Shown here: one piece after another, positions 19,804-59,626 of the stretch
How the letters are laid out: each line of letters begins with the position of its first letter
How positions within the stretch are numbered: the first letter of the stretch is position 1
Assembly: GCA_041483895.1 (NCBI GenBank)
Contig: JBGPGO010000007.1
Coordinates: forward strand, 14,304 to 78,303
Origin: Fimbriimonadia bacterium
Lineage (GTDB): Bacteria > Armatimonadota > Fimbriimonadia > Fimbriimonadales > JABRVX01
DNA: 64,000 bases
Reading direction: 5' to 3'
Made by a program: the position numbers and the translations under genes
The notes under the pieces: model-generated
The model's input: the letters and a program-made list of their open reading frames with translations, nothing else
What the model was told of the DNA's origin: nothing
Database searches by the model: none

Positions 19804-19879
19804 TCCTCGGTAGCTCAGTTGGTAGAGCAGCTGACTGTTAATCAGCGGGTCGTAGGTTCGAGTCCTACCCGAGGAGCCA
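19804..19879 (+). tRNA. tRNA-Asn: tRNA-Asn (anticodon GTT), CCA encoded
   Basis: TCCTCGGTAGCTCAGTTGGTAGAGCAGCTGACTGTTAATCAGCGGGTCGTAGGTTCGAGTCCTACCCGAGGAGCCA. It has a 7-bp acceptor stem TCCTCGG/CCGAGGA, anticodon loop CT-GTT-AA and a GGTTCGAGTCC T-arm. Confidence 0.95.
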
Positions 19880-19958: not shown

Positions 19959-20147
19959 TTTGGGCGCGGGGGTTTTCCGAGTTTTCCGAGGCTTCTTAAC
20001 GTGCGCGCGAGGCGGAATCGGTTGGTTTGGACCGGAGTGTTCGTTCCTTACATGACTCGCCTCGATCTTCCAGACAGTCGTCGCCGGTCAGGACGCAATC
20101 TAGGAACTTTTCACGCAATCATGTCTGCCTAGGAGGTGGCGCAAATC

Positions 20148-21335
20148 ATGGCGAAGAGACGATCCAATGGCGAAGGAACAATTACGCAAAGGAAGTGCGA
20201 CGGCCGATGGGAGGCTCGGCTGTTCCTCGGCTACATAGGCGGCAAACGAAAGTGGAAGTTCCTGCACGCCGCGACAAAGGAAGTGGCGGTGAAGAAGCTG
20301 CGCGAGGCGCAGGTCCAGCACGCTCGCGGCGTCAACGTCGCACCGGAAAGGCAGACGCTAGAGCAGTTCCTCTGGCGCTGGCACGAAGAGGTCGTGAAAC
20401 TCCGAAACCGACCGAAGACAATTCTCTCTTACGAGCAACTGATCCGCGTCCACCTCGTGCCCTCACTCGGACGCTTCACTCTCCAGAAGCTAAGTCCACA
20501 AGATGTTCAGATGTTCCTCAACGAACGGTATCGCTCCGGCCTCTCGCCCCGGACCGTTCAGTATCTGCGTGGCGTGCTCCGTTGCGCCCTGAACGATGCT
20601 CTTCGTTGGGACCTCGTGCATCGAAACGTGGCAACACTTGCCCAACCGCCAAAGGGCCAACGCAAAGAGATGACGGCGCTTGGACCCGAGGAGGTGAAGC
20701 GCTTCCTCATTGCCGCCGAGGGCCACCGGCTGGAGGGCTTCTTCGCGCTCCTCATGGCGACCGGCATACGACTCGGCGAAGCGCTGGGCCTCAAGTGGGA
20801 GGACGTCGATTTCGACAAGGCGACGTTGACGGTGAGAAAGCAACTCCAGCGCCTGAAGGGTTCCGTATCGCTTATCGATCCAAAGACGGACCGCGCCCTG
20901 CGCACCATCCCGATCGCGCCGTTCGCGATCGAAGCTCTTCGCGGGCATCGCTCTCGCCAACTCGAAGAGCGATTGAGGAATGCGGGCAAGTGGGAAGATC
21001 AAGGGTTCGTCTTCTGCACTCAGGTCGGCACTCCGGCGGATGAGCGGAAGATACGAAACGGCTTGCGGGAGATTCTCAATTCGGCGGGCCTTCCCAAGAT
21101 GCGCGTCCACGACCTTCGCCACACCTGCGCGACCCTGCTCCTCTCGCGCAACGTCAACCCTCGCGTCGTGCAAGAGGTCCTTGGCCACTCGAACATTAGC
21201 CTGACGCTCGGCACGTATAGCCACGTACTGCCGACGCTCGCCAGGGAAGCGGCGGACCAGATGCAGGCGGCCGTTGCAGGCTCGCCGCGCCCCACGGCCT
21301 TGCGACCATCCGGCTCATTTCTAGCCCGGCCATAG
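20148..21335 (+). CDS. tyrosine-type site-specific integrase (phage-integrase family)
   Basis: AGGAGG at 20131-20136 then ATG 20148 (the ORF track starts at GTG 20136). Catalytic blocks are TGIRLGEALGLKWEDVDF (Arg), HDLRHTCATLL (HxxR) and LGHSNISLTLGTYSHV (His...Tyr). It lies directly downstream of the tRNA. Confidence 0.9.
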   Translation: MAKRRSNGEGTITQRKCDGRWEARLFLGYIGGKRKWKFLHAATKEVAVKKLREAQVQHARGVNVAPERQTLEQFLWRWHEEVVKLRNRPKTILSYEQLIRVHLVPSLGRFTLQKLSPQDVQMFLNERYRSGLSPRTVQYLRGVLRCALNDALRWDLVHRNVATLAQPPKGQRKEMTALGPEEVKRFLIAAEGHRLEGFFALLMATGIRLGEALGLKWEDVDFDKATLTVRKQLQRLKGSVSLIDPKTDRALRTIPIAPFAIEALRGHRSRQLEERLRNAGKWEDQGFVFCTQVGTPADERKIRNGLREILNSAGLPKMRVHDLRHTCATLLLSRNVNPRVVQEVLGHSNISLTLGTYSHVLPTLAREAADQMQAAVAGSPRPTALRPSGSFLARP

Positions 21336-23574: not shown

Positions 23575-23731
23575 TATGCCTTCTCCTCCAGCAGGTCTTC
23601 CCCGTCCCAGATCATGGTTCGGATTGTTGTCCCCGGTTCCTGCTTCGTCCTTCGCTTTCCATCCCCGGCGTAAGTATGGCTGCTCCGGGTCCCGCCGACA
23701 TACAGGATCGACACTTGCCGGTCTGCATGCC

Positions 23732-29363: not shown

Positions 29364-29620
29364 ATCAGCCAACGTTACCAGAATCCGGCGGTTGGCATGT
29401 TCGAGGGTGGTCAAGCGCCCCCCTACGATGTCGTTGTTGCAGTTCCTGGCTCGCGAAGGCATTCAATCAATCGGTACCCGGTCGTTACCAGCAGCGTCGC
29501 GCTAGGAGCGATGGACGCATCGGCTCGTCAGATCATGTTCCTCCATTCCACATAAAGTGAACTTGTAGAGGCGGACCGCCACTAAGATTCGACCACAACT
29601 CCCCGCCATCAAGAGGATGC

Positions 29621-36010: not shown

Positions 36011-36946
36011 TCACGCCAGCTCGGACAGCAGTCGGCTCGTCCTGCCCGGCAGGTGTTCCCGTGCATCGTCGTAGATCATCAGCGTCTCCAGTTTGGAATG
36101 GCGGCTGAGCTTCTGCGCGCCGCGCACGTCGCCGTTGGTGGCGTGGAGGTAGGCGGTGATGCTGGTGTGCCGCCACTTGTGCGGACTGAAGTTCTGGATG
36201 CCGGCCTTCTTGGCATAGTGCTTTACCATGAACGCAAGGCCGACGCCGGTGATGCCGGATGGCTGGCCGGCGCAAGAGAGGAACAGTTCCGGTCGGCTAT
36301 CGTTCCGACATGCGAGGTAGTCGCCGATCGCTTCTATGGCCTTATCGCTCAGTGTCATCAGCACCTTCTGAGTCCCTTTGCCTTTGCCACGGACGGCTAG
36401 CGTCTTCGCATCCGGATCGAAGTCGGCCTTCGTCAGATTGCAGATCTCCTGCCTGCGAAGCGCCAGTTCCCAGAACAACCGGAGGATCGCCGCATCGCGC
36501 TTCCCCTTGACGGTAAAGGTGTTCGGCAGCATGAGCATCGCGGCCGCAGCGTCCTTGTCCACGCCCCTGGTGTCTCGATACTGCATTGTCTTCTCGCCCG
36601 GCACCAGTCCCTGCGGATTGACTTCCGTCAGCCCAAGCTGCCGCGCAACGCTCAGAAGCGAGCGGATGGCCGTTAGCCGACGATTGAGGGTCACCTCCGC
36701 CACGCCTTGCTCGATCTGCTGCATCTTGAAGGTGAGCATCGCCCGAACGACGCCGGTCGTCTCAAGCTTGAAGAACGCTCCGATTGTCTGCGGCGTTGGC
36801 TCGCTCCTGGCCACGACCCGGAAGAACAGCCCTAGATCCCGCTGGTAGGCCAGCCTCGTGACTTCGCTCCGCTTGGACTTCAGAAGGAACTCCAGTGCAT
36901 CCGGCGCCACCGGACTCGGTTCTGTAAGTTTGAGTTCAATTGCCAT
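36011..36946 (-). CDS. Xer-type tyrosine recombinase, copy A
   Basis: 311 aa with an N-terminal SAM-like domain (RLAYQRDLGLFF). Catalytic blocks are ELALRRQEI (Arg), GKGKGTQKV (Lys), PHKWRHTSITA (HxxR) and SRHSKLETLMIYDD (His...Tyr). About 90% identical by eye to copy B. Confidence 0.9.
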   Translation of the reverse strand: MAIELKLTEPSPVAPDALEFLLKSKRSEVTRLAYQRDLGLFFRVVARSEPTPQTIGAFFKLETTGVVRAMLTFKMQQIEQGVAEVTLNRRLTAIRSLLSVARQLGLTEVNPQGLVPGEKTMQYRDTRGVDKDAAAAMLMLPNTFTVKGKRDAAILRLFWELALRRQEICNLTKADFDPDAKTLAVRGKGKGTQKVLMTLSDKAIEAIGDYLACRNDSRPELFLSCAGQPSGITGVGLAFMVKHYAKKAGIQNFSPHKWRHTSITAYLHATNGDVRGAQKLSRHSKLETLMIYDDAREHLPGRTSRLLSELA

Positions 36947-36962: not shown

Positions 36963-36990
36963 GGTATCGAAAAGGGCCATTATCGATACC
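36963..36990 (-). repeat. dif-like 11-6-11 site a
   Basis: GGTATCGAAAA-GGGCCA-TTATCGATACC is the exact reverse complement of site e. It lies 16 nt upstream of the recombinase A start codon. Confidence 0.8.
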
Positions 36991-37108
36991 AACACCACAT
37001 GTACTCGAGGGCTCCCACAGAAGTCCAGGCCGCGTGTAAGTGTCGATAGAAGTAAGTCGGTCGGCACGGATCGGGGGCATCCGGGGAATCCTACGCAACA
37101 GAATGACG

Positions 37109-38434
37109 TCAAATGTCGATCTTGCTGCCAGATGTTGGCGCGATATCGAGGGCGAGTTCGATGGCCTGCTCCATTGTCAGCGCGCGTCCTTCCTGCCAGG
37201 CGGACGCGAAGGCTTCTTCGCCCAGAGCGGCGCGCGCGTCGGCGAGCTGAACGTCATGGCGGATGCGATCGTTCGGCGACAACGGTGAACCGCTTTGCAC
37301 CCGCATCACCTCGACCGCGCTCCACAAACGCGCGGCCCGCGCCGCCTCCCCTTTCGAAAGCCAGAGAGCGGCAAAGGCCTGAAGCGAGTGTCCGATGAAG
37401 AAGGGGAGCCCAATTTTGCGAAGAATCGCCAAGCTCTGCTCATGCAGTTCTCTCGACGAGCCGAAGTCGCCCCGCTGTTGCGCGACGATTCCCAATTCGA
37501 GGAGCATGACCCCTATTCCCGGCCGGTCTCCAACCTCTCGCCGAATGGTCAAGCTTTCCTCAAAGAGGGCGCGCGCCGATTCGTAGTCGCCCCGTTCTTT
37601 TGCGATAATCCCTAGGTCGCCAAGCGAGTCCGCGATCCCGCGCCTGTCTCCCACCTCTCGCCGCAAGGTCAGGCTCTCTTCATAAAGCGCGAGCGCCGAC
37701 TTCTGGTCGCTATGCGCTCTTGCGATGCCTCCAAGATTGTTGAGAGTGACCGCGATGCCCCGCTTGTCACCCAATTCTCGATAGAGCGACAGGCTCTCTT
37801 CATAAAATTCTCTCGCCGGCCCTAGATCGCCTTGCCGGCTGTAGGAGTTGCCCATATTGTTCAGAGAGCCGGCTATGCCCACCTCATCCCCTATCTCGCG
37901 AAAGACCGACAGGCTCTCCTCAAAGAGCGTCCGGGCTGCCCCATTGTCGTCCTGGAAGTGAGCCAAGCCGCCCGCCCCGTTCAACGCCTTCGCTCTCGCG
38001 GCCGTGCGACATCCACTTTCGTCCCCGGACAACACGATTCCGACCCGCTCGCGCCCCTCAACCAGATGCCCACGCACGGACCAGAAACGCCACAAGGCCC
38101 CAGCGAGACGCAGGGCCTCGGCGTCGTTCCGCAGCTCAAGGACTGATCTGAGGTTGTCATGATCGGACTCCAGTCGTTCCAGCCAAGCAGCCTGCTCCAG
38201 CCCCGTCAACTGCGGTTCCGCTTCCTCCGCCAGCGTCAAGTAGAAGCCACGGTGCCGGTCCCGAACGGCCTCGCCCTCGCCGCTCTCGAACAGACGATCC
38301 CGCCCATACTGCCGCACGGTCTCCAATAGCCGATAGCGCGTCTGCCCGTTATCCTCTTCGGTCACAACGAGATTCTTGTCGACGAGGGAAGCGAGGATTT
38401 CGCCTGCCTCGAAGGAGTCGATTGGCCCGCTCAT
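37109..38434 (-). CDS. winged-helix plus TPR-repeat protein (STAND sensor module, paralogue 2)
   Basis: Starts ...ILASLVDKNLVVTEEDNGQTRYRLLETVRQYGRDRL, then has about 8 TPR units (GIAGSLNNMGN, GIAVTLNNLGG...). Shares an ATGA overlap with the upstream ORF. Confidence 0.8.
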   Translation of the reverse strand: MSGPIDSFEAGEILASLVDKNLVVTEEDNGQTRYRLLETVRQYGRDRLFESGEGEAVRDRHRGFYLTLAEEAEPQLTGLEQAAWLERLESDHDNLRSVLELRNDAEALRLAGALWRFWSVRGHLVEGRERVGIVLSGDESGCRTAARAKALNGAGGLAHFQDDNGAARTLFEESLSVFREIGDEVGIAGSLNNMGNSYSRQGDLGPAREFYEESLSLYRELGDKRGIAVTLNNLGGIARAHSDQKSALALYEESLTLRREVGDRRGIADSLGDLGIIAKERGDYESARALFEESLTIRREVGDRPGIGVMLLELGIVAQQRGDFGSSRELHEQSLAILRKIGLPFFIGHSLQAFAALWLSKGEAARAARLWSAVEVMRVQSGSPLSPNDRIRHDVQLADARAALGEEAFASAWQEGRALTMEQAIELALDIAPTSGSKIDI

Positions 38435-39738
38435 GCCTCGTTCGCCTCTAATGCGAATTCAACAGCTTGTTCTGTCGTCATGAGGCGGCCCTCCTGCCAT
38501 GCCTGGTAGAATGCGGCATCGTCTCCCATATCGGCCCGGGCTGAGCTCACGCGTCGATCGTACTTCGATATTTCGCACGGCATTAGGGGTGATCCGATCT
38601 CTTTGCGTAGACGTTCCGACGCGCCCCAGATTTGGGCGGCTCGAGGAGGATGGGCGAGTGGCGCCAGTTGTTCCAGCGAGCCGGCGATGCCCCTCGGATC
38701 ACCAAGTTCCTGCCATATTTTCACACTCTCCTTGAGTAGCTGCTGTCCAGCAATGCGGTCATCCAGTTCTCCTGCCACAGCACCAAGGCCTTGAAGCGCA
38801 TTGGCGATTGTCCGCCGGTCGCCAAGGTCCCGAGCGATGGTCAGGCTTTCAGATTGCAGCGCTTCGGACATCGAGTACTCGCCACGATGCAAGGCCACAA
38901 ACCCTAGGTTGCATAGCGCCATGGCAATACCCAACCTGTTGCCGGCTTCCCTCATGATCGCCAGGCTCTCCTGATGCATGGTCCAAGCGGTTGGGTAATC
39001 GACCTGCTCGGTGGCCATAATGCCGAGGTTGCCCAGCGCAACAGCAACGCCATACCGGTCATCGAGTTCTCGAAAGATCGCGAGGCTCTCCTCGAACACG
39101 GCTCGCGCATTCAGATGATCGCCCTGTGCCTTCGCCACATTCCCGAGACTGTTCAGTGAAACGGCAACCCCGAGACGGTCGCCGAGTTCCCTCCTGATCG
39201 CCAAGCCCTCTGCCAACAGCTCTAGAGCGGCTGTATAGTCGCCTTGCTGTGAGGCCAACGAACCGGCGCCGTTAAGCGCCAATGCACGGACCGACCCAGA
39301 TTGTCCGCCCGGTTCGACAGCCAGAAGTCCGGTGAGCCAATCACGTCCTTCGCTGATATGCCCACGGATCCACCAGAATCGCCAGAGAGCACCGGCCAGC
39401 CGGAGGCCCAAATCATTTCCGTCACATTGCTCGCGGCACCATTTTAGAGCCGACCGAAGGTTGTCATGCTCTATTTCGAATCGTTCCAGCCAAACCCCCT
39501 GGTCGGGCCCCGACAACTGGGGCACGGCTTCTTCCGCAAAGGCCAGAAAGTTATCTCTGTGTTTAGTCCGCCACTCATCGCTCTCACCGGTCTCCAACAA
39601 ACGCTCTCCTGCGTACTGTCGCACGGTTTCCAACAGACGAAAGCGCGTATGTCCACCTTCCTCTTCAGTCACAACCAGATTCTTGTCGACAAACGAGCCG
39701 AGTAAGTCAAGGACTTCCCGGGTTTCTATGGCGTTCAT
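38431..39738 (-). CDS. winged-helix plus TPR-repeat protein (STAND sensor module, paralogue 1)
   Basis: Starts MNAIETREVLDLLGSFVDKNLVVTEEEGGHTRFRLLETVRQYAGERL, then TPRs. Its ATG lies 1 nt after the stop of the cyclase-NTPase ORF (TGAAATG). Confidence 0.8.
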   Translation of the reverse strand: MNAIETREVLDLLGSFVDKNLVVTEEEGGHTRFRLLETVRQYAGERLLETGESDEWRTKHRDNFLAFAEEAVPQLSGPDQGVWLERFEIEHDNLRSALKWCREQCDGNDLGLRLAGALWRFWWIRGHISEGRDWLTGLLAVEPGGQSGSVRALALNGAGSLASQQGDYTAALELLAEGLAIRRELGDRLGVAVSLNSLGNVAKAQGDHLNARAVFEESLAIFRELDDRYGVAVALGNLGIMATEQVDYPTAWTMHQESLAIMREAGNRLGIAMALCNLGFVALHRGEYSMSEALQSESLTIARDLGDRRTIANALQGLGAVAGELDDRIAGQQLLKESVKIWQELGDPRGIAGSLEQLAPLAHPPRAAQIWGASERLRKEIGSPLMPCEISKYDRRVSSARADMGDDAAFYQAWQEGRLMTTEQAVEFALEANEA

Positions 39739-39739
39739 T

Positions 39740-48931: not shown

Positions 48932-51877
48932 CTAGTCCACGATGACCGTCTGGTTGGTTTTGGGCGCAGTCGCCGGCCAGAGGAGCTTTTTGCCATCAGC
49001 CGTCCGAGCCACGATGTAGTACTCGAAATCCTCCTGCGCCGCAGGCAGTGTCGCCTGGTATACCGCGCGGCCCAGATGCCGGAGCTCGATCCTTTGGAAC
49101 TGCCCTTTGCCGAGCGGGCGAAGGCACAAGTACGCTTCACTCGCCGGCAAGTTGTCAAGGATGGCCACACGGAGCGCGAGTGATTCCCCTTTGCGCGCTT
49201 GAGTGCGCACGGTCGGCACAACGATGCGCGTCGCGCCGGCGTAGTGGTTGGACGGGGCGGCATCAAGAGGAAGCGGTCTTTCGAGAGCCGCCGTGATCTC
49301 ATTGTCGTAGGCATCGAGCGTGTGCATGGTACGGCGGCTCTGCATCTCAAAATTTGCTATCGTGCCTAATTCCCCGGGGGTGTCACAGGCGGCGGCCTGG
49401 TATGTCATCAACTCCTCCCAGGCGCGCGCTATGGCGACACGAGACACCAACGCGTCGGAAGCCAGTTGCTTCCGCTTGGAGGTATCCGTCTCATTCTTCA
49501 GCGCCGCCGCCGCCCGATCCAACTCCGCCCGCAGGCAGCCCACTCGCGCAATCGCTTTGACTGCGCGATAGGTGTTGAGCCAGTAGTCGAAGCGCTCGAG
49601 ATTGCCTGCTCCGCGTACGCGGGAACGCAGCTTAGCGAAGGACTCGACGAAGGCGAACTGCTTTTGGACGGTCTCCCACGGCACTCCGTTCGGCAAGATT
49701 CCTCCCGGACCGGTAATCCAGTCCGTTACTTTCGGCATATTCAGTCCGTCTACCGAAGCCATTATGGCAGCGGCGGCGACTGCGACTCCCGCCCCAAAGT
49801 TTGCTCGCGCAAAATCCTTGTAGAAATCCGCATCCGGCATCCCACGGTCCTTGCCCGCGGATGGGATGGCACCGACTACCGTGTCGGCTTCATAGCCCTC
49901 TACCTTACCGCCGCCGCAGTTAATCTTTCGGCTGAACGCCGTGCCTGTGTTCGTTCTTCCCTCAATCACAATCCCGGCTATGCACGGGAACTCGACTTGA
50001 CGGACGAATTCGATCCGGAGTGGATCGGCACTGACTTCGATGTCGTGAAAGACGTAGTCGAGGGCCTTGTTCCGGCCCACCTCTTTGAACACATCCAAGG
50101 TATCGATCACTGTCTTGCCTTGCAAGCGCACGCCAAACACGCGCTTACCTATCGCATCGTGGAACGGCTCATTGAATTGCAGTCTCACACGGTACGTGCC
50201 GTTGGGTACCGAAAGGCGATAGCCGTCCATGTCGTATCGGACAGTCTGGTACACGCCCACTTCCTCGGTACCGGTAACCGGCTCTGTAAATACGGCAGCG
50301 TTCCCACCAACCGCTCCGTCCTTTGTCATTTGAGGTTTCCAGGACTTGGCGAAGAAGTTCGCGGGGACCCACGATTGATCCCACGCTGCGGCCGATAGGG
50401 CGGAAACATTTAGCATCATTGCTTTGGTGCGCCAATGGATGCCAAGCAGCCCTGTGCATCCAAGCCGCCGTGCGTCGGCGGCATCGTACCGCATGCGCGC
50501 CACCCAAGGCTGAGGCTGAGTCAGCATCGGATCGTTTTCCATCCATGGTATAGCCCATTTTGGACGCCCCGCAATATCCGCGAACGCGGGTTCGACAGGA
50601 TCATGTCCCACCTGGCGATTAATGCAACTCATGGGAGATGTCTTCGGCAGAATTCGGTCAAGCGCAGTTCGGTCGTTCTGAGGTCCAAGAACCCACCCGC
50701 ACGTCGCCAGTACGAAAGGGTTCCCAAGGCATTGTAGAGCAGCAAGGGCCGCGCGTATGTCGCTTGTGGTAGCATCCAACCGCTGCTTGCTGTTGCCGCC
50801 CCACGTCCAATCCTCCGGCGTCCACAGCCAGTAGTAGTCCACCGGGCAGGCCCGTGAGATTCGCATGAAGATCCCCTCGTATATCTCCTGCACCGTATTT
50901 GGATCGCCAGGGTCTCTTCCAAGAGCTTTGAGCCGCTCGCGCACGACGGTGGGAATGGTTAGCGGCGTCTCCGTGCCAACACATGTTTTCACACCCAACT
51001 GCTTCGCCCGTGAAAACACGATGCGCATCATCTCGCCGACGCGCCTGAACAGCTCATTGGATTCCGTGGGAGTGGCTGGGCGTGGCATCAGCCCGGTCTG
51101 CGAGTAGTTGCCATAGCCGTCTTGCGCGAAAAGCAGCGCCGCGCCGCCCGCAAACTCTGAGGTTGCAACAGGGGCATACCCCCACGTGCCCTTCGTCGTA
51201 TTGGCCCACGCGGACGGATAGCTGAACTTCACCCCTCCCCGCTCGTCGCAGTCCGAGGGGCTCCCGATCCACACCAGCGGCTCCGGACCAACGCCGCCCT
51301 CCGGGTAGCAGTGAAGGCCCAAAAAGTTCATTCGCATCTTCGGCAGTTGTTCTACATACGCAAGGTAGTCATCCTGATCCCACCAGTCAGGGCCTTCTGG
51401 GAAGTCGTGAAATGGCTGAATACCTCGTATCGTGAACAACGGCGTTGCCGTCTCGTTGAGGTGGGGAAGGGCATATGCGATCCTCTCGTCCGGAATCACG
51501 TCGCCGTGCAGATAGAATCGCACACCCAGTTTCTCGGCGAAACGATACGCACCGTACAGCACGGCGACATCGCTCCCTCCGCTGATCATCAAACTCCCGC
51601 CTCTCGTTTTCAGACGAAATTGCTGCGGCGAGAGAGCAGGATCCACGCGCAGAACGATTCCCGTGGCGTGTGAGACGCGCGGGACTATTCGCAGCAGCTT
51701 CCCTGTCCGGAGGTAGACGTAGCGCCTTACCTCTCGCGCAGCCAGCCTGACGTTTGGAGAGGCGCCGGCGGGACAGACGATCACGTCCCCGGAAACCATC
51801 GCAACGCAGGCAACCGCCGCCAGGACTAACGGCAACCCAAAGTGCGACTTCGTTCTTTTCCATTTGCATGTGTGCAT
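48932..51877 (-). CDS. secreted glycoside-hydrolase-like protein with malectin-like carbohydrate-binding domain
   Basis: 981 aa with a signal peptide. It has an N-terminal GH20b/GH67N-like segment (VAVLYGAYRFAEKLGVRFY) and a malectin-like segment (YRVRLQFNEPFHDAIGKRVFGVRLQGKTVIDTLDVFKEVG). Confidence 0.7.
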   Translation of the reverse strand: MHTCKWKRTKSHFGLPLVLAAVACVAMVSGDVIVCPAGASPNVRLAAREVRRYVYLRTGKLLRIVPRVSHATGIVLRVDPALSPQQFRLKTRGGSLMISGGSDVAVLYGAYRFAEKLGVRFYLHGDVIPDERIAYALPHLNETATPLFTIRGIQPFHDFPEGPDWWDQDDYLAYVEQLPKMRMNFLGLHCYPEGGVGPEPLVWIGSPSDCDERGGVKFSYPSAWANTTKGTWGYAPVATSEFAGGAALLFAQDGYGNYSQTGLMPRPATPTESNELFRRVGEMMRIVFSRAKQLGVKTCVGTETPLTIPTVVRERLKALGRDPGDPNTVQEIYEGIFMRISRACPVDYYWLWTPEDWTWGGNSKQRLDATTSDIRAALAALQCLGNPFVLATCGWVLGPQNDRTALDRILPKTSPMSCINRQVGHDPVEPAFADIAGRPKWAIPWMENDPMLTQPQPWVARMRYDAADARRLGCTGLLGIHWRTKAMMLNVSALSAAAWDQSWVPANFFAKSWKPQMTKDGAVGGNAAVFTEPVTGTEEVGVYQTVRYDMDGYRLSVPNGTYRVRLQFNEPFHDAIGKRVFGVRLQGKTVIDTLDVFKEVGRNKALDYVFHDIEVSADPLRIEFVRQVEFPCIAGIVIEGRTNTGTAFSRKINCGGGKVEGYEADTVVGAIPSAGKDRGMPDADFYKDFARANFGAGVAVAAAAIMASVDGLNMPKVTDWITGPGGILPNGVPWETVQKQFAFVESFAKLRSRVRGAGNLERFDYWLNTYRAVKAIARVGCLRAELDRAAAALKNETDTSKRKQLASDALVSRVAIARAWEELMTYQAAACDTPGELGTIANFEMQSRRTMHTLDAYDNEITAALERPLPLDAAPSNHYAGATRIVVPTVRTQARKGESLALRVAILDNLPASEAYLCLRPLGKGQFQRIELRHLGRAVYQATLPAAQEDFEYYIVARTADGKKLLWPATAPKTNQTVIVD

Positions 51878-52219
51878 CGGTATCTAGGTGAAGATTCTAC
51901 GGTGGACGCCACCGACTCCTTGAAGCCGCTTCGAACGGAGTAGGCAGGAGCGGCGAACATCAAGTGGATGGCCCCAGCCCGGTTGATTATTCGTCCACCA
52001 ACAGACGCATGTTTGTGTCGCCAAAGCGGCCTTGAATGATGGATAGCAAATGGGACGCCGATTGAATTGGATCGTAGGACCGGTTAGAAATCCCTACGCA
52101 CGAAACGGCGCATTGGCGGACGGGCGAATGCAGTCACAAGTCCGATATGCCTACAATCGATAAACCCCTCGTTCCTTGAGCCTGGACTTCCAACCGCTCT
52201 TCCGAGTACCTGTCGTATT

Positions 52220-52247
52220 GGTATCGATAATGGCCCTTTTCGATACC
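52220..52247 (+). repeat. dif-like 11-6-11 site e
   Basis: GGTATCGATAA-TGGCCC-TTTTCGATACC, 17 nt upstream of the recombinase B ATG, with the GGGAGG SD in between. Confidence 0.8.
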
Positions 52248-52264
52248 AAAGGGAGGCAGAAACC

Positions 52265-53212
52265 ATGGCAATTGAACTCAAAGTTACAGAAGCCGCCCCA
52301 GCCGTACCGAACGCGCTGGAGTTCCTTCTGAAGTCCAAACGGAGCGAAGTCACGAGGCTGGCGTACCAGCGGGATCTAAGGCTGTTCTTCCGGGTCGTCG
52401 CAGGGACAGAACCAACGCCGCAAACGGTCGGCGCATTCTTCAAGCTCGATACCCCCGGCGTCGTTCGAGCGATGCTCACCTTCAAGTTGCAGCAGATAGA
52501 GCAAGGGGTTGCCGAGGTTACGCTGAACCGGCGGCTGACGGCGATTCGCTCGCTTCTCAGCGTGGCAAGGCAGCTCGGGCTAACAGAGGTCATTTCGCAG
52601 GGACTTGTTCCCGGAGAGAAGACGATGCAGTACCGGGACACCAGAGGCGTCGACAAAGAGGCAGCGGCCGCGATGCTGATGCTGCCGAACACCTTTACCG
52701 TCAAGGGGAAGCGCGATGCGGCGATCCTCCGGTTGTTCTGGGAACTGGCGCTACGAAGGCAGGAAATCTGCAATCTGACACGAGCCGACTTCGACCCGGA
52801 AGCAAAGACGCTGGCCGTTCGCGGCAAGGGAAAGGGAACGCAGAAGGTGCTGATGACGCTGAGCGACAAGGCAATCGAGGCGATCGGCGACTACCTCGCA
52901 TGTCGGAACGATAGCCGACCGGAACTGTTTCTCTCCTGCACCAGGGACGGAAACGGACAGCTCTCCGGCATCACGGGCGTCGGACTGGCGTTCATGGTGA
53001 AGCACTACGCGAGGAAGGCCGGGATCCAGAACTTTAGTCCCCACAAGTGGCGGCACACGAGCATCACCGCCTACCTACGTGCCACAGACGGCGACGTGCG
53101 CGGCGCACAGAAGCTCAGCCGCCATGCCAAGCTGGAGACGCTGATGATCTACGACGATGCACGGGAAGACATCCAAGGCCGAGCGACGAGGCTGCTGTCG
53201 GAATTGGCATGA
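52265..53212 (+). CDS. Xer-type tyrosine recombinase, copy B
   Basis: 315 aa with the same catalytic blocks as copy A (ELALRRQEI, PHKWRHTSITA, SRHAKLETLMIYDD). It differs by scattered substitutions and a 4-codon insertion (CTRDGNGQLSG versus CAGQPSG). Confidence 0.9.
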   Translation: MAIELKVTEAAPAVPNALEFLLKSKRSEVTRLAYQRDLRLFFRVVAGTEPTPQTVGAFFKLDTPGVVRAMLTFKLQQIEQGVAEVTLNRRLTAIRSLLSVARQLGLTEVISQGLVPGEKTMQYRDTRGVDKEAAAAMLMLPNTFTVKGKRDAAILRLFWELALRRQEICNLTRADFDPEAKTLAVRGKGKGTQKVLMTLSDKAIEAIGDYLACRNDSRPELFLSCTRDGNGQLSGITGVGLAFMVKHYARKAGIQNFSPHKWRHTSITAYLRATDGDVRGAQKLSRHAKLETLMIYDDAREDIQGRATRLLSELA

Positions 53213-53313
53213 TATTGTCAAATCAGCGCATGTTGCTGTCAATCGCCATAGCTGACGGCTTCCTAAACGCGACTTCATGAAGCGGAACAGATTCGAAAAG
53301 CAGGATCCGACGC

Positions 53314-55239
53314 TCAATCTCGACGCAGATTCTCATCGGGATGGAAATTAGGAAGATCCATATGGGGTTCAGACATAGCATGAATCAAGGTGATATCACC
53401 AGATCCCGTGTCACCTACCATCACCCCCGAGCGCCAACCATATCCCTTCAAAATCTGTCGGGGTCCCGGGCCGTTCTGAAATTGTTTATACTCGTCATGC
53501 GAGACAAGAAGAGAGTAATCGTAGAACGGTAAATCGATCGTTCCGTCTTCGTGATAACTGCCGCCGCCGAAAAAACAGCCGACGATGCCGGGCGCCGTTT
53601 CTTCGTAAAATGTAAGCGGATCGTCGTTCTTGATCAGGGGCGACTTGGCCGGATTTAGCCAAGGGCCGGCGCGACCATCATCTGGACACAATGCCTTGTA
53701 CGCTGTGAGCGCGTCTCTCTGCATCGGGGACAGAGCACGGGCAGGAATAGACTTGTCGCTCCTCAATACGCTCTTTTGGTTTGGGCTGAGGGTCGCCCAG
53801 AATCGCATCATCGCGATTTCTTCGGATTGGCATACCGGCCCTTGGAATCCCCTCCATGTCACTTGGAGCGTATCCAGCAGCTGTCGGAACCGGCTATCAG
53901 TCATGTGGGAAGCAATGGAGGCCAAGTCATCGAATGAGGGCACTCCGTTGAAAAGCACCCGATATAATTGATGCAGGATGGGGCGCGGACAGCTATCGTT
54001 GCCCGCGATCCGAACCGACTGACTGGCGGCTCCGACGATCCAATCTCCTGACGATTTCCAGCAAATTTCGTCCTGGCCAATCTGGTACAGCAGGTCGGCC
54101 AGCCGGCAATGACCCGTGGGCGCCTGACTTCGTAGCATGCCGTCGTTGAGCTCCACAACAATGGGCATGTTCGTCGAGCTCGATATCTGTCTGAGCAATG
54201 GAGAAGTCACGACATCGAGCGGGTCCAGAAAGTCGTTCGCACCGTGCGAATGGACCCATTGACCATATGGTTTCCAAAGGTACAAGAGCCGCTCGGCAGT
54301 GAGATCGGATATCGGTTTCGGAACTGAAATGACTGGATTGTCCTGAATTTGCACCAACGAGGCCGGGCTGGGTTTCTCGGCGCTTGGAAGCGGCAACATC
54401 AGCGAATGCGACTGCAACAAAGGACGATTGTGCAAGTCGATAAGCGAAGACACGACATCGACCGAATAATCAAATGCCTTTACTGAGATCCGAAGCGACT
54501 TACAATTGGCAAGTTTGCGACCTTCTTTGGAGCGCAAAATCGATCGGGCGTGGGTGGGGACGAAACCTTCCAGATCGTACTCTTTCGCAGCGGATACTTG
54601 CCATGTCTTGCATGGTTCCTCGATACCGCTCAGCCCAACAATGACCTGCGCCGTAGACCCTTCCAGCACAGTCCACCACTGCGCCTCGCTCCACTGATCC
54701 AGCACGTCGAACGCTATGTTGCTGTCGGGATACGCTTGCTCCCAACAGTCATCACTTTGCTCGGGCCCATACTCCTGGTCAGGCACATGGAACCGCTCAC
54801 TGGCCGGCAGATCCCGCTCCCGTCGCCGCCGGGCCATTTCGGTCATGATCGCGGCAAGGTTCCGATCCTCCTTCGCCTTGGCGGCAGATTGGCTAAGTCG
54901 ATTGCGATAGGCTCTTTGCTGAGGAGATTCCCGTAATACGTAGCCGCCACCTCTCTTGAACCAAGTGAGGTCCAGCGACTCAGCGAGCCGGTTCATCACC
55001 TCGCGAAGCGGCCGCCCTTTTGCGCAAAGAAAGACGATCCGATTCCTGTTGGCGGCATCGGCCGACAATGGGACTTTGGTTTCCCTCGTCAGCAGTTCAA
55101 GAATCTCTGCGACGGACAGGCAAGAGCCGGCAGAATTCACCGTCAAGTTCAAGGGATTTCTTGCCGGGAGGACAGTCTTCCGTAAGGTGGCTCCCCCCAA
55201 GATTAGTGCCAAGACCCCTATTGCAGCAACAAATCTCAT
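53314..55239 (-). CDS. hypothetical secreted protein
   Basis: 641-aa ORF with a signal-like N-terminus (MRFVAAIGVLALILGGA). No family recognised. Confidence 0.6.
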   Translation of the reverse strand: MRFVAAIGVLALILGGATLRKTVLPARNPLNLTVNSAGSCLSVAEILELLTRETKVPLSADAANRNRIVFLCAKGRPLREVMNRLAESLDLTWFKRGGGYVLRESPQQRAYRNRLSQSAAKAKEDRNLAAIMTEMARRRRERDLPASERFHVPDQEYGPEQSDDCWEQAYPDSNIAFDVLDQWSEAQWWTVLEGSTAQVIVGLSGIEEPCKTWQVSAAKEYDLEGFVPTHARSILRSKEGRKLANCKSLRISVKAFDYSVDVVSSLIDLHNRPLLQSHSLMLPLPSAEKPSPASLVQIQDNPVISVPKPISDLTAERLLYLWKPYGQWVHSHGANDFLDPLDVVTSPLLRQISSSTNMPIVVELNDGMLRSQAPTGHCRLADLLYQIGQDEICWKSSGDWIVGAASQSVRIAGNDSCPRPILHQLYRVLFNGVPSFDDLASIASHMTDSRFRQLLDTLQVTWRGFQGPVCQSEEIAMMRFWATLSPNQKSVLRSDKSIPARALSPMQRDALTAYKALCPDDGRAGPWLNPAKSPLIKNDDPLTFYEETAPGIVGCFFGGGSYHEDGTIDLPFYDYSLLVSHDEYKQFQNGPGPRQILKGYGWRSGVMVGDTGSGDITLIHAMSEPHMDLPNFHPDENLRRD

Positions 55240-55334
55240 TCCAACTCAATAATATCACAAATACGCAATGAGCTGTTGCGGCGGCTCCGTGGCCATGAAG
55301 ACTTCGAAACGCGACAGGTGCGTGCGGGCCATTC

Positions 55335-55362
55335 CCTATCGAAAATCGCCATAATCGACACC
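55335..55362 (-). repeat. dif-like 11-6-11 site f
   Basis: CCTATCGAAAA-TCGCCA-TAATCGACACC. Its reverse complement is GGTGTCGATTA-TGGCGA-TTTTCGATAGG. Confidence 0.7.
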
Positions 55363-55364
55363 AA

Positions 55365-55555
55365 GAACACTGCTGCGAATCGCACCGCGAGGGCTGCGCA
55401 GCATCGAGCGCCAGGATGGCGGTGAATTCCCGAGTGAGCGCACCGAATACATCCGCGACGGCGACGATGCTTTCGGCAAGTGGCATCCGTTCACCTTTCA
55501 AGCCTTCCAAGTAGCCGTTGCCGTACCAGCGTTCCTGATGGTATGGAAGCCTTCC
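55365..55555 (-). pseudogene. HD-GYP domain gene fragment
   Basis: The minus-strand translation PYHQERWYGNGYLEGLKGERMPLAESIVAVADVFGALTRE matches the HHERWDGSGYP...IPL..RI.AVAD.FDALT core of HD-GYP phosphodiesterases. There is a stop immediately upstream, and the fragment ends at site f. Confidence 0.6.
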
Positions 55556-55616
55556 TAACTGATTCTGTGCAAGAACGGGGCCGGATTAGCCGCAACTGAA
55601 GAAAGTCGAGTTCGAA

Positions 55617-56147
55617 GTGTATAATAGGGTCGGGGAGCGGCTAAGACTTGTACAAACCGATCCAGATCCGAACGCAACGCCTGTTCATAGGCGGACACTC
55701 TTGACCGACTTTACATGGTCGGTGCGAGTTCGCGCCGCAGGTAAACAGGAAGCAACGGTTCATTCTCGGAACCACACGTTCCGCGTTGGACCGCAGCTAA
55801 GCTTCGCCCAAAGCGATTCCAATCCCACTGCCCTCGAGTTCTTCATTGGCGCCTTCGCGGCGGATATCGTCAATGGCTTTCAGCGGGCCGCCGCCAAGCG
55901 GAGAATAGCGCTCGATGAACTTGAATTCTCCGTGACCTGCCGGCTGAACAACCCGCTGGTGCACGTGGAGGTTATCGGTGAGGAAGGCCACCCCGGAATC
56001 GAACAGATCGACGGAACGCTTTACGTCTTCGCTGATTCCGAACCGAATGTCATCGAAGAGCTTTGGAACGAAACGCTTTCAATGTCACCTCTGGTCACTA
56101 CACTGAAGGACTCGGTGACCTTAATGTTGCGTATAAATATGATCTAA
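55617..56147 (+). CDS. OsmC/Ohr-family protein
   Basis: 176 aa with a GTG start. The pattern (NPTALEFFIGAFAADIVNGF...ELEFSVTCRL) is compatible with the OsmC fold. Moderate confidence. Confidence 0.65.
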   Translation: MYNRVGERLRLVQTDPDPNATPVHRRTLLTDFTWSVRVRAAGKQEATVHSRNHTFRVGPQLSFAQSDSNPTALEFFIGAFAADIVNGFQRAAAKRRIALDELEFSVTCRLNNPLVHVEVIGEEGHPGIEQIDGTLYVFADSEPNVIEELWNETLSMSPLVTTLKDSVTLMLRINMI

Positions 56148-56160
56148 GGGGGAAACGAGC

Positions 56161-57312
56161 ATGTATGCACTAACAGAGAAGCAAGCGTCCATCGTCGGTC
56201 AAATCCACAAGCTCGTGGAAGAAAACGTCGCTCCGCAAGCAGCCGACGTTGATCGACAAGGAAGGTTTCCGAAAGAGGCAATCGACGCGCTGGCGGCTGA
56301 GGGATTGCTGGGGTTGACGGTCCCGCAAGAATACGGAGGCATGGGTGAAGGGGTACGAGTTGCCGCCGCCGCCCTCGACGAGATCGCCCAGGGCTGCGCC
56401 TCCACCGCGATGATTTATCTGATGCACCTGTGCGGGGTCGCCTGCTACAGCGCGGCCCCGAAAGTAGCCAACGGGCAGCTTCGGGACGCCGCCAAAGGCG
56501 AGCATCTCAGCACTCTCGCTTGGAGCGAAGCAGGCTCGCGCAGCCACTTTTGGGCTCCGATCAGTCAAGCCGCGCAGAAGAACGGCCATGTGTCGCTCAA
56601 TGCCAAGAAATCTTGGGTTACTTCGGCGGGGTACGCGGACGGCTACGTCGTATCCAGCCGTACCCCGGGAAGCCAAGCGCCCACCGATACCATGCTCTAT
56701 CTGGTTCTAAAGGAGGATCCGGGCCTGAAAGTGGACGGCCCATGGGACGCGCTGGGAATGCGTGGAAACGCCAGCGCACCGATGATTCTTGCGGACTGCG
56801 AGGTCCCTGCAAGCCGGGCGCTCAGCGAGCCGAGCAAGGGCTTCGACTTCATGCTCTCGGTGGTTCTTCCGACGTTTCAACTCGGCAACGCGGCCATCTG
56901 TGTCGGCATATGTGAGGCGGCGGTCGCCGCGACAACCGCCCACCTTATTGGTAAAGGCTTCGAGCACCTCAATACCAGACTCGCGGACCTGCCAAACCTG
57001 CGCGCACGGCTTGCGCAAATGCGCATCGAGACGGATCGTGCTCGCGCACACCTTGCAAGCGCGATCAACGCCGTCGAAACCCCAGGTCCGACGACGATGC
57101 TCATGGTTCTGGAGGTTAAGGCTGCGGCCGCGGAAAGCGCGATCACGGTAACGGACCTTGGAATGCGGGCCTGCGGCGGTGCGGCGTTCAGCAGGCAATT
57201 GGGACTGGAGCGCAACTTCCGAGACGCGAGGGCGGCGGGTGTCATGGCTCCAACGTCGGACGTGATCCACGACTTCATCGGCAAAGCGCTCTGCGGAATG
57301 GACCTGTTCTAG
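56161..57312 (+). CDS. acyl-CoA dehydrogenase-family protein
   Basis: 383 aa with typical ACAD N-, middle- and C-domain patterns (FPKEAIDALAAEGLLGLTVPQEYGG, KSWVTSAGYADGYVV, RNFRDARA). Confidence 0.9.
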   Translation: MYALTEKQASIVGQIHKLVEENVAPQAADVDRQGRFPKEAIDALAAEGLLGLTVPQEYGGMGEGVRVAAAALDEIAQGCASTAMIYLMHLCGVACYSAAPKVANGQLRDAAKGEHLSTLAWSEAGSRSHFWAPISQAAQKNGHVSLNAKKSWVTSAGYADGYVVSSRTPGSQAPTDTMLYLVLKEDPGLKVDGPWDALGMRGNASAPMILADCEVPASRALSEPSKGFDFMLSVVLPTFQLGNAAICVGICEAAVAATTAHLIGKGFEHLNTRLADLPNLRARLAQMRIETDRARAHLASAINAVETPGPTTMLMVLEVKAAAAESAITVTDLGMRACGGAAFSRQLGLERNFRDARAAGVMAPTSDVIHDFIGKALCGMDLF

Positions 57313-57313
57313 A

Positions 57314-58138
57314 ATGGCGGCCCCGATCCTCGTTGGCGCGGTCGTATATGACCCCAAGGTAGTGTTGATCTGGGAAATCATCAAGGACTTCTTCGAACAG
57401 AACGATTGCGCGATGGACACCGTGTTCTACAGCAACTATGAGTTGCAGGTCGAGTCTTTGTTGAAGAACCAAATCCATATCGCGTGGAATTCACCTCTCG
57501 CTTGGCTGGACGCCCAGCGACAATCAGGCGGGCATTGCCGTGCGATTGCCATGCGGGACACCGACCGGGACCGTGTCTCTCATATCGTCGCCCAGAAGCA
57601 AAGCGGTTTCACCAACCTTGGTGATCTTCGCGGCAAGACATTCGCCACGGGAGCGAAAGACTCTCCACAATCAACTCTTATCCCAACCGGACTGATGCAG
57701 CGGAACGGTCTGAACCCGGGAGTGGATTTCCAGGTCCGAAGATTTGATGTGCTTGTCGGAAAGCACGGGGATCACATTGGGGGGGAGCTGGACGCTTTGA
57801 AGTCCCTCCAAACCGGGGAAAGCGATGCCTGCGCTCTGCTGGACCTCAACTGGCAGAGGTGGAAGACCGACGGAACGGCCGATCCGTCGAAATTGGCCGT
57901 GATCGCGACCACCGATCGGTTCGATCACTGTGTTTTCACAGTCGGCAAGGAGTTCCCACAGGACGATCAAGAACGGTGGCTCACAGTGCTGCACGCGATG
58001 AGCTACGACAATCCCGACCACCGCGAAATGATGGATATGGAGGGTCTTAAACAGTGGCTCCCGGGCCGGACGACACAGTTCACGGCGCTGACGGAGGCGG
58101 TGGAGAGGCAGGGCTTCTTCGAAGGGAGCTCATCATAG
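57314..58138 (+). CDS. PhnD/SsuA-like periplasmic-binding-fold protein without signal peptide
   Basis: 274 aa. The pattern (IAWNSPLAWLDA, LRGKTFATGAKDSPQSTLIP, ACALLDLNW) resembles phosphonate/sulfonate-type binding proteins. Starts 1 nt after the ACAD stop. Confidence 0.65.
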   Translation: MAAPILVGAVVYDPKVVLIWEIIKDFFEQNDCAMDTVFYSNYELQVESLLKNQIHIAWNSPLAWLDAQRQSGGHCRAIAMRDTDRDRVSHIVAQKQSGFTNLGDLRGKTFATGAKDSPQSTLIPTGLMQRNGLNPGVDFQVRRFDVLVGKHGDHIGGELDALKSLQTGESDACALLDLNWQRWKTDGTADPSKLAVIATTDRFDHCVFTVGKEFPQDDQERWLTVLHAMSYDNPDHREMMDMEGLKQWLPGRTTQFTALTEAVERQGFFEGSSS

Positions 58139-59286
58139 AACGGTTACCTCTTTTTCCGGTCACCACAGTTGGCAGCTGGCCACGTTCGCAAGAGTTGCTC
58201 CGGGCGTTCCGGCTAAAGCAACGGGGAGAGATGAGTGCTGCCGCCTTCGATCAGATTGCCGATGTCGCAGTCCGAGAGGTTCTTAGGTTGCAAGACGAAG
58301 CGGGAGTGGACATTGTTACGGATGGAGAGCAGCGGCGCGACAACTTCTATTCGTTTGTGGCGGAGAAACTCGACGGCGTCAAGCTAATGTCCCTCGCGGA
58401 GATGCTGGACCTCGTTGATGATAAGGCAGGCTTCGAGAAGATCCTACAGACCCTCGACGTCCCCGCCTATTCCATCAAGAATCCCACCTGCGACGGCAAG
58501 ATCGCTCGGCGCATGCCGCTCGCACTCGACGAATATCTATTCCTGCGCCGGCATACCGACAAGCCGATCAAAGTAACGCTTCCCGGCCCCTATCTGCTCA
58601 CCCGGGCTATGTGGGTTCCCGAGGTGAGCCGAGAGTTCTATGATTCCAAGGAGGATTTGGCGGAGGATGTGGTGACAATCCTGCGGCATGAGCTGACGGA
58701 CCTCATGGATGCGGGAGCCACTTTCGTCCAGTTCGACGAGCCGGTGCTGACTGAGCTGATGTTCACGCAGGGTCAGACGCGCACGTTCATGTGCGCCGCG
58801 CTCGCGTCAAGAAACGATCCGGCGGAAGAGCTGGAATTCGCGGTTGGCCTGATCAACCGCGTCGCCGAGGGCGGTGAAGGGCTGCGGATTGGGTTGCATG
58901 TATGCCGGGGGAACTGGAGTCGAAATGAGGAGACGCTTCTTCGAGGCTCTTACCACCCGCTCGTCTCGTACTTTGACAGGATGCACGTCCAGCAGTTCGT
59001 GCTCGAATATTCGACGCCGCGCGCCGGCGAACTGGTCGCGATTGACGGGAAGGAGATCGGCCTCGGGGTCGTCAATCCACGCACATCGGAGGTGGAGACG
59101 GTTGATCAGATCGTCGCGAGAGTTCGAGCGGCCATGGACATTATTCCGGTGGAGCGCATGTTCCTCAATCCGGACTGCGGCTTTGGGACATTCTCCGCCC
59201 GTCCGATGAATGACACGGAGACGGCAACCCGGAAGATGAAGGCCATTGGGAGAGCCGCACAGGCATTGAGAGAGGGCGTCGCATAG
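58054..59286 (+). CDS. cobalamin-independent methionine synthase (MetE C-terminal-like) family protein
   Basis: LPLFPVTTVGSWPRS, DGEQRRDNFYSF, HVCRGNW and LNPDCGF motifs. The only canonical start (ATG 58054) overlaps the upstream gene by 85 nt, so the true start is uncertain. Confidence 0.8.
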   Translation: MAPGPDDTVHGADGGGGEAGLLRRELIIERLPLFPVTTVGSWPRSQELLRAFRLKQRGEMSAAAFDQIADVAVREVLRLQDEAGVDIVTDGEQRRDNFYSFVAEKLDGVKLMSLAEMLDLVDDKAGFEKILQTLDVPAYSIKNPTCDGKIARRMPLALDEYLFLRRHTDKPIKVTLPGPYLLTRAMWVPEVSREFYDSKEDLAEDVVTILRHELTDLMDAGATFVQFDEPVLTELMFTQGQTRTFMCAALASRNDPAEELEFAVGLINRVAEGGEGLRIGLHVCRGNWSRNEETLLRGSYHPLVSYFDRMHVQQFVLEYSTPRAGELVAIDGKEIGLGVVNPRTSEVETVDQIVARVRAAMDIIPVERMFLNPDCGFGTFSARPMNDTETATRKMKAIGRAAQALREGVA

Positions 59287-59598
59287 CCTGTCGAAGGATG
59301 GACCGGCCGGTTGCGAGCGATACAGCACACTTGCGGTTCGGAGGCGAGGAGCGCTAATCTGTTTTTGACGCCAATCATCGACATCGTACAATAATCAGGA
59401 CCGAAACTACGCGATCTCGGAACGCTCTACATCTCCCGCAACATGACGCACAGATCTCCAATAGGGTGTATAAGGCGGCGATGAGCGACAAGATGGGTTT
59501 GAAGTCCTACGCAAAGGATATCAAGCGAAGGGCGAAGGAACGGAATTAGCGTGCTCTTCTCCATGGTGGGAATATACCTCCCACAAATTCTGTCTCCA

Positions 59599-59626
59599 GC
59601 TATCGAAAATGTCCATTATCGATAGC
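59599..59626 (-). repeat. dif-like 11-6-11 site g
   Basis: GCTATCGAAAA-TGTCCA-TTATCGATAGC. Its reverse complement GCTATCGATAA-TGGACA-TTTTCGATAGC matches site e at 24 of 28 positions. Confidence 0.75.

Follow-up and report, generated by a model that had tools for sequence, protein, structure and literature searches.

Dif-like 11-6-11 sites beside two Xer-related recombinases of a Fimbriimonadia bacterium, and their probable role as recombination sites of an uncharacterised clade

A 64,000-nt stretch of the genome of a Fimbriimonadia bacterium (Armatimonadota; GenBank assembly GCA_041483895.1, contig JBGPGO010000007.1, positions 14,304 to 78,303), referred to here as the window, carries seven short palindromic sites (a to g) scattered among blocks of unrelated genes, together with two tyrosine recombinase genes, and raises the question of what acts on these sites and what they have done to the DNA around them. 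As judged by sequence comparison, they are very probably the cognate recombination sites of an uncharacterised clade of Xer-related recombinases. The explanation favoured here as the probable one is that they are the cores used by this distinct clade, and that they are both substrates and scars of the events by which the gene blocks of a genomic island were assembled and reshuffled.

Allowing up to 3 mismatches, the degenerate pattern TATCGAWAA-N6-TTWTCGATA matched the window at exactly six positions (36963, 41396, 47446, 52220, 55335 and 59599; sites a, b, c, e, f and g). Dinucleotide shuffles give an expectation of 0.02 matches, and six or more were reached in none of 100 shuffles. With a position weight matrix derived from five oriented sites of the window and five of relatives, the same six score 37–44 bits, the runner-up in the 64 kb being at 17.9 bits and shuffled sequence reaching up to 18.2 bits. 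As this runner-up lies inside the shuffle range, the sites are confined to 36.9–59.6 kb, and the weight-matrix scan of the window found no site outside 36963–59626. Site d, in which one base of the right arm is deleted and several others are substituted, scores less than 8 bits, and is recognisable only by the ~40–58 nt on its left side, which share homology with the flank of a and e. The preliminary description of this locus, made from the sequence alone, had reported seven 28-bp dif-like sites of the 11-6-11 form, all intergenic, with a and e close upstream of the recombinase starts. Six of them are found intact at those positions and d is a decayed copy; all seven are indeed intergenic, and a and e lie 16 and 17 nt, respectively, from the ATG of the adjoining recombinase gene. 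Fully intergenic 28-mers make up 10.4% of the region, giving p ~1e-6 for six independent intergenic sites. Modest hairpins can be drawn for five of the seven sites, which might suggest chance palindromes, repetitive extragenic palindrome-like repeats or terminators unrelated to the recombinases. This explanation is scarcely credible, as the shuffles yield next to no matches, none of the T-tract or terminator calls in the window coincides with a site, and site and gene remain linked across phyla (see below). The hairpin or terminator reading was rejected specifically because site f, which keeps its half-sites, does not fold at all and no site bears a terminator call.

The arms of every site are alike, sharing TATCGAWAA, and the spacers of all seven sites read TGGNNN on one strand, being variants of the palindrome TGGCCA. 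Oriented by this spacer, the sites read a−, b−, c+, d+, e+, f− and g− (Table 1). The arm-based orientation scheme of the preliminary description fails against this rule, which flips site b to minus, and with it falls the fixed polarity of sites and genes proposed there: the genes between a and e are all on the minus strand, yet the sites are minus at a and b and plus at c, d and e. Identical spacers occur only in the pairs a/e and b/c, the members of which are inverted relative to each other, while the spacers of directly oriented sites are all different. Differing spacers of direct sites are the survivors to be expected with an active resolvase-type enzyme, a pattern that is not statistically significant with so few sites; the spacer identity of b and c alone is not significant either, as chance would give ~0.3 identical pairs. 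By their outer dinucleotides the arms fall into the types GG, CC and GC, each of which forms an inverted pair (a/e, d/f and c/g). In an attempt to derive an order of events from these dinucleotides, no simple series of exchanges accounted for the inverted pairs.

The two proteins encoded beside sites a and e are Xer-related simple tyrosine recombinases, sharing 90% protein identity and 86% DNA identity. They contain the intact catalytic residues R, HxxR, H and Y, by which they look active, and their best match among solved structures is archaeal XerA. Their scores against curated hidden Markov models are 95–110 bits for XerC (cut-off 335), 77–88 bits for XerD (cut-off 330), 94–98 bits for XerA (cut-off 220), 59–61 bits for XerS (cut-off 267), 22–23 bits for the integron integrase (cut-off 265) and 19.7 bits for the tyrosine-type DNA invertase (cut-off 221). 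Membership of XerC, XerD, XerA, XerS, IntI and the invertases was rejected, the scores being far under the cut-offs. What remains of the two dedicated Xer-type recombinases of the preliminary description is that they are related to Xer proteins and own the sites; by these cut-offs they are not XerC, XerD or IntI. Among the simple tyrosine recombinases, a 2021 classification sets apart a subgroup named 'Cyan' (PMC8138268), and the 40–47% identity of the present proteins to recombinases of more than 120 cyanobacterial plasmids is only suggestive of the clade being this subgroup.

Each recombinase gene is part of a duplicated unit, which spans from ~40–60 nt upstream of the site through the recombinase stop codon. 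Sites a and e are identical at 28/28 positions though the recombinase genes differ by 14% in DNA, which indicates that the 28-bp site is under constraint. A promoter-like element precedes the site (Table 1), and its hexamers are kept in the window copies, in a truncated copy on contig L009 and in two 70%-identity orthologues; the sequence between the hexamers is not kept. Contig L009 (JGI 3300053056, 387–910) itself carries a third promoter-site-recombinase unit with the same site as a and e and a different upstream flank. Its recombinase gene ends after ~155 codons, where it is fused to unrelated sequence, and the contig comes from the same metagenome.

The position of a and e in the 5' leader, after the promoter-like element and ahead of the ribosome-binding site, together with a -10-like hexamer (GATAAT or GAAAAT) within left arm and spacer and with junctions that are stable in all contigs, would be in keeping with the sites being operators only, at which the recombinase or another regulator controls transcription and no recombination takes place. 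Such a role is improbable as the whole explanation. Site g is not in a promoter position, as gene ends converge on it from both sides, and a stop codon stands 5 nt away from site c; the locus contains the chimeric site d and an inverted attachment-site copy (see below); the catalytic residues are conserved; and the pattern of one site per plasmid is typical of resolution sites. The position of g between converging gene ends and the lack of a hairpin at f indicate that conservation concerns the half-site as duplex DNA, and neither a folded structure nor a place at a promoter.

The assignment of the sites to the recombinases is best seen in relatives. An 11-6-11 site is located upstream of the recombinase gene in both units of the window, in contigs L009, L001, L103, L017 and L032, on pCC7120epsilon, pCENA543b, pANA03 and a Calothrix plasmid (plasmid2), and in the viral contigs L119 and L120. 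The distance from site to start is within ~20 nt in most relatives and larger in the two viral contigs. The closest full-length homologues, 70–71% identical, are from Fimbriimonadia metagenome-assembled genomes and metagenomes. In one of them, L001, the leader site is GGTCACGATAA-TGGTCA-TTTGCGTGACC, at the same distance from the gene as in the window, with arms in which GGTCACG...CGTGACC replaces GGTATCG...CGATACC, so that both arms are altered symmetrically; the distal site of this contig, 3.4 kb away, carries the altered arms too. The leader site of L103 is GGTGTCGATAG-TGGCGC-TTTTCGATAGC, and two further sites follow at 12143 and 15024. At 40–47% identity the family is present once each on more than 120 cyanobacterial plasmids. 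On pCC7120epsilon, pCENA543b and pANA03 an 11-6-11 site with TATYGAWAA-like arms lies directly 5' of the gene, that of pANA03 being much weaker (7/11 arm positions paired), and each of these three complete plasmids (L106, L107 and L108) has exactly one site, beside one recombinase gene. An arrangement of one gene and one site per replicon would fit a multimer-resolution system. The cyanobacterial contigs L017 and L032 were found by DNA pattern only, and in both a recombinase homologue adjoins the site. A relative from the viral collection has a perfect 11-6-11 palindrome with quite different arms, and the distant homologues L110, L112 and L113 (43–49% identity; plasmid- or phage-like contexts) have no recognisable TATCGA-type site, so that the arm sequence is not universal in the family. 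It is from the linkage of site and gene across relatives, the single site per plasmid and the co-variation of the arms that the sites are read as cognate, and the earlier suggestion that they belong to the neighbouring recombinases is upheld by the family-wide association and by the arms that change with the recombinase in L001.

Two observations on relatives are added here. The plasmid2 of Calothrix sp. NIES-4105 (L124; AP018292.1, 16770–57657) contains at 18930–34886 three full-length recombinase paralogues in tandem and 3–4 fragments within 16 kb, with a TATCGAAAA-type site directly 5' of the middle paralogue only; this stretch of a cyanobacterial megaplasmid gives the impression of a hot spot of recombination. 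The 71%-identical orthologue was assembled six times independently (L001–L006), and all six assemblies end within ~70 nt of one another, 220–290 nt upstream of the gene, which suggests a repeat or a variable junction just past the promoter-like element.

Exact-pattern scans for TRTCGAWWATGGNNNTWWTCGAYA over GTDB genomes, JGI metagenomes and IMG/VR, in collections without the source genome, returned 34, 59 and 2 matches, respectively, all of them singletons and roughly the number expected by chance (a rough estimate). A recombinase homologue is near the match only in L017, L032 and L061. Two other groups of sites were seen among JGI and further contigs. The first, GTTRTCGAAAA-TGGNNN-TATTCGAYAG, recurs in L044, L045, L050, L056–L058, L073, L077, L088 and L100 (JGI), with a conserved left flank (ggtcactcaag or similar), variable right flanks and no homologue of this recombinase nearby, and may represent the terminus or the target of a different mobile element. 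The second, RTTATCGATTA-TGGNNN-TTTTCGATAAY, occurs once per contig in L012, L013, L015, L051, L067, L068 and L071 with both flanks conserved. The contigs derive from Comchoanobacterales, an unclassified gammaproteobacterial metagenome-assembled genome and unassigned metagenome sequences, and the site may be the chromosomal dif of those hosts. Exact-protein look-ups for recombinase 1, P0005 and the Malectin protein gave no match, and the others retrieved nothing but contigs in the order of the window (L007, L008, L109 and L123).

Table 1. Sites, genes and other features of the window (positions counted from its first nucleotide; site strands according to the TGGNNN spacer).
Feature	Position	Strand	Description
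tRNA-Asn	19804..19879	+	left end of genomic island
P4-like island integrase	20136..21335	+	49.5% identical to second integrase of L001
Recombinase 1	36011..36946	-	311 aa; SAM-like core-binding and catalytic domains
Site a	36963..36990	-	oriented GGTATCGATAA-TGGCCC-TTTTCGATACC; 5' leader of recombinase 1; identical to e
Promoter-like element	36991..37029	-	CTGGACTTC, 17-18 nt, TACATG; reads through site a into recombinase 1
Module a-b	37109..41206	-	adenylate/guanylate cyclase-STAND NTPase fusion, then two paralogous TPR proteins
Site b	41396..41423	-	oriented CCTATCGAAAA-TGGACG-TTATCGATAGG; 189 nt upstream of cyclase-STAND gene
Module b-c	41462..47161	-	type I restriction R subunit, PIN-like protein, two proteins of unknown function, 236-aa HsdS-like protein
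tRNA-Asn 3' part copy	47223..47267	-	perfect 45 nt, inverted, ~27 kb from tRNA gene
Site c	47446..47473	+	GCTATCGATAA-TGGACG-TTATCGACAGC; 178 nt right of inverted tRNA-Asn fragment
Module c-d	47479..48509	-	overlapping open reading frames; weak match to C-terminal part of anti-phage SIR2 protein
Promoter-like element	48582..48620	+	stranded at relic site d
Site d	48621..48648	+	GGTATCCATGA-TGGCGC-TCTT-GATAGG; decayed chimeric relic
Module d-e	48932..51877	-	981-aa protein with Malectin domain
Promoter-like element	52181..52219	+	reads through site e into recombinase 2
Site e	52220..52247	+	GGTATCGATAA-TGGCCC-TTTTCGATACC; 5' leader of recombinase 2
Recombinase 2	52265..53212	+	315 aa; SAM-like core-binding and catalytic domains
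Cargo e-f	53314..55239	-	641-aa protein, no family match; converges on recombinase 2
Site f	55335..55362	-	oriented GGTGTCGATTA-TGGCGA-TTTTCGATAGG; inverted vs e
Module f-g	55617..59286	+	OsmC-like, acyl-CoA-dehydrogenase-like, phosphonate-type binding protein and MetE-family genes
Site g	59599..59626	-	oriented GCTATCGATAA-TGGACA-TTTTCGATAGC; between two converging gene ends

Relatives also show how the sites are placed with respect to cargo. A shared layout, consisting of promoter-like element, plus site, recombinase, converging cargo, minus site, second module, minus site and backbone, is present in the window (sites e, f and g) and in L103 (7509, 12143 and 15024), and in L001 (222 and 3666) without the second module. 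The converging cargo is a 641-aa protein of unknown function in the window, a C-type lectin protein in L103 and a Fic protein with small open reading frames in L001; the second module is a four-gene metabolic operon in the window and an AbiE toxin-antitoxin pair with DUF6941 in L103. The backbone by the last site (ParB-methyltransferase and neighbours) is syntenic between L001 and L103. Given the common layout with differing cargo, recombinase and sites belong to a family of integrated mobile elements in which the sites mark the cargo differences. The earlier statement that the sites bound blocks of unrelated genes is supported, and relatives built in the same way hold other blocks. Relative to the sites, the second module is read one way in the window and the other way in L103, so that no integron-like polarity rule applies.

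The modules of the window are of various kinds. The TPR genes (37109–39738) are paralogues in a 1307-nt register, ~77% identical in places and with an internal 120-nt TPR periodicity, and form one overlapping operon with the cyclase-STAND gene. In module b–c the sole match of the HsdS-like open reading frame is to the C-terminal region of specificity subunits, and hsdM is missing, the restriction system (41818–47161) being incomplete as it stands. Module c–d is probably a degraded gene. The earlier remark on truncated genes beside several sites holds only in part: there is the SIR2-like fragment between c and d, but the HsdS-like frame adjoins the tRNA fragment, not site c. Sites e and f bracket recombinase 2 and the converging 641-aa gene, and contig L007 spans both sites.

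Modules bounded exactly by sites bring to mind an integron- or pdif-like capture platform, in which dedicated recombinases excise modules as circles and insert them at any site of the array. The extra 2.9-kb AbiE/DUF6941 module of L103, which lies between direct sites and is missing in L001, and the equivalent metabolic operon of the window would agree with this. It is nevertheless a rather unlikely explanation, since the polarity of sites and genes is not fixed, the sites in direct repeat have non-identical spacers, the integrase score is 22 bits against the 265-bit integron integrase cut-off and no circle junctions are seen in contigs. No module is found in two different contexts either, none identical having been found among the window, L001 and L103.

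The e–f segment could also be taken for a programmed inversion switch, in which the promoter-like element outside e reads the recombinase or, after e/f inversion, the converging cargo, and in which the inverted sites a and b supply alternative genes, comparable to the G segment of Mu, the vsa locus of Mycoplasma and synthetic FLEx constructs. In three loci the converging cargo ends at an inverted site next to which, on the inner side, a gene starts (at 95 nt in the window and 26 nt in L001), at 9/12 oriented sites a gene reads away on the same side (own count from gene tables and site positions), and the promoter-like element is conserved while its inter-hexamer spacer is not. The switch is doubtful all the same: contigs L001, L002, L007, L103 and L104 show one orientation only, e (TGGCCC) and f (TGGCGA) have spacers with two mismatches between them, the recombinase would be turned off by a flip, sites c, d and g stand outside the pattern, and the orientation bias is not statistically significant.

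The favoured explanation, that the sites are substrates and scars of island assembly, draws on the surroundings of the array. The locus is within or next to a composite tRNA-Asn genomic island with its own P4-like integrase. The motif TTGACAC-NN-TTTTGACACGC follows both the tRNA gene and the inverted copy of its 3' part, and a copy of TTTGACACGC precedes the latter (47141–47384); with these flanking motifs the inverted copy is a genuine attachment (att) region. It is probably a junction between tandem islands which was later inverted, in an attP-like arrangement. An att repeat should be direct, so that the inversion calls for one breakpoint in the interval 19.9–47.2 kb and a second one on the right side of 47.27 kb. 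The copy sits between the minus sites a and b and the plus sites c, d and e, and any minus/plus pair among a–e would explain its inversion. At site d the homology to a and e runs through the promoter-like element, the left arm and the start of the spacer and then stops at the site, to be followed by a damaged arm of another type and an unrelated flank with no recombinase gene, a chimera which suggests what spacer exchange leaves behind. Site d and the inverted att copy are the two probable recombination scars of the locus.

The mechanism proposed for the array is as follows. The two alike 11-bp arms of a site would be bound by the enzyme and the 6-bp spacer would be the place of crossover; each recombinase gene carries its own leader site just downstream of the promoter-like element. 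As both arms are alike, the system looks like one of the Cre/lox type that runs on a single protein, and less like a heterodimer site of XerC and XerD. A recombinase dimer would bind each site, two sites would synapse and strands would be swapped across the spacer, leading to excision or integration with direct sites and to inversion with inverted sites. The identical-spacer pairs a/e and b/c, being inverted, would invert and not delete the DNA between them. Binding at the leader site would probably also repress the recombinase gene. On cyanobacterial plasmids the single gene and site would serve multimer resolution, and in the window, where the unit is present twice with five further sites within or next to the island, these would be the substrates and scars of site-specific fusion, insertion and inversion.

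Several points weigh against this explanation. Same-strain contigs from two other metagenomes (L007, L008, L109 and L123) are collinear across b, e and f at 99.98–100% identity and show no alternative junction or excised circle, the junction at site b being confirmed by the independent contig L123. Differing spacers block classical tyrosine recombination, so that the array may be largely inert. The outer bases of b (CC..GG) and c (GC..GC) are still symmetric, unlike the outcome of a single b x c exchange, and more complex histories could account for the inverted tRNA fragment. Binding, cleavage positions, autoregulation, the inverting pair and present activity are all inferred.

Comparison with known systems places the array between several of them. 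In Acinetobacter pdif modules each site is oriented opposite to the one before it (C/D then D/C), and the modules are described mainly on plasmids. As in the window, several 28-bp sites of the 11-6-11 form bound accessory blocks there, including toxin-antitoxin and defence-type genes, and module content varies between related replicons (PMC6449649, PMC13141974). However, a pdif site consists of a XerC arm and a different XerD arm and depends on the XerCD of the host (PMC6449649). The arms in the window are alike and its two dedicated recombinase genes each have their own leader site; its orientations come in blocks (a−, b−), (c+, d+, e+) and (f−, g−); and it belongs to a chromosomal island of Armatimonadota. 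Integrons likewise have a recombinase gene (IntI) by a primary site (attI) and a promoter, followed by a site-bounded gene array, but the window lacks the IntI signature, its sites are short duplex-type palindromes and not folded attC, and the polarity is mixed. Integrons and pdif modules had been named as the closest analogues; the site-bounded modules as in pdif stand, and the integron polarity, IntI and the host XerCD do not.

With XerC/XerD dif, which had been given as the architecture of the sites, the array shares the 28 bp, the 11-bp arms and the 6-bp spacer; the arms are nevertheless alike and the enzymes are 90%-identical paralogues, not a C/D pair, and seven sites in 23 kb argue against the single, FtsK-activated terminus site of that system. 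XerS/difSL, XerH/difH and archaeal XerA/dif resemble the array in that a single Xer-related recombinase acts on a palindromic site. The site difSL adjoins xerS, an adjacency shared by the window, with its site 16–17 nt upstream of the recombinase, and by its relatives with the same placement. These known systems differ in having one site per chromosome for dimer resolution, as against seven in 23 kb within or next to an island. The plasmid and phage resolution systems Cre/loxP, ResD/rfsF and TnpI/IRS share with the window a site of the homodimer type, whose alike arms enclose an asymmetric spacer, placed beside the recombinase gene and with probable autoregulation, and the cyanobacterial plasmid relatives match them in having one site per replicon. 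There is, however, no detectable close sequence relationship, and the 6–7 sites and two genes of the window are spread among cargo modules. Shufflons (R64 Rci/sfx; Mycoplasma pulmonis HvsR vsa/hsd) similarly have one tyrosine recombinase and many short sites in both orientations, by which inversion can bring different DNA to a fixed expression site. They swap alternative 3' exons or paralogous surface genes, whereas the blocks of the window are unrelated and multi-kilobase, and the match to the invertase model is negligible. The system functions in the way of lox-type or single-Xer systems, and the array has the look of pdif modules and shufflons, but by the tests available it is a member of none of these families.

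A wider and rather speculative possibility, which appears unlikely at present, is a self-contained system for module exchange and expression switching in Armatimonadota and possibly cyanobacteria, built from a ~1 kb unit (promoter, 28-bp site and recombinase) and satellite sites. By means of a lox-like single protein, it would capture, invert and alternately express defence and metabolic blocks, in a position between integron, shufflon and pdif.

Literature searches found no description of these sites, of the array or of the arrangement for this recombinase clade. No dif-like sites could be predicted for cyanobacteria in a 2011 survey (PMC3025954), and a candidate target site can now be assigned to a widespread clade that includes single-copy genes on more than 120 cyanobacterial plasmids. 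The compact unit of one protein and a 28-bp site with natural spacer variants could serve as a lox-like tool. The cargo is in part of the defence type, comprising type I restriction, a possibly defence-related STAND NTPase and a SIR2-like fragment in the window, and AbiE in the relative L103. If the array is active, a resolution-type recombinase would here have been turned into a reshuffler of island cargo, outside Acinetobacter and without the host XerCD.

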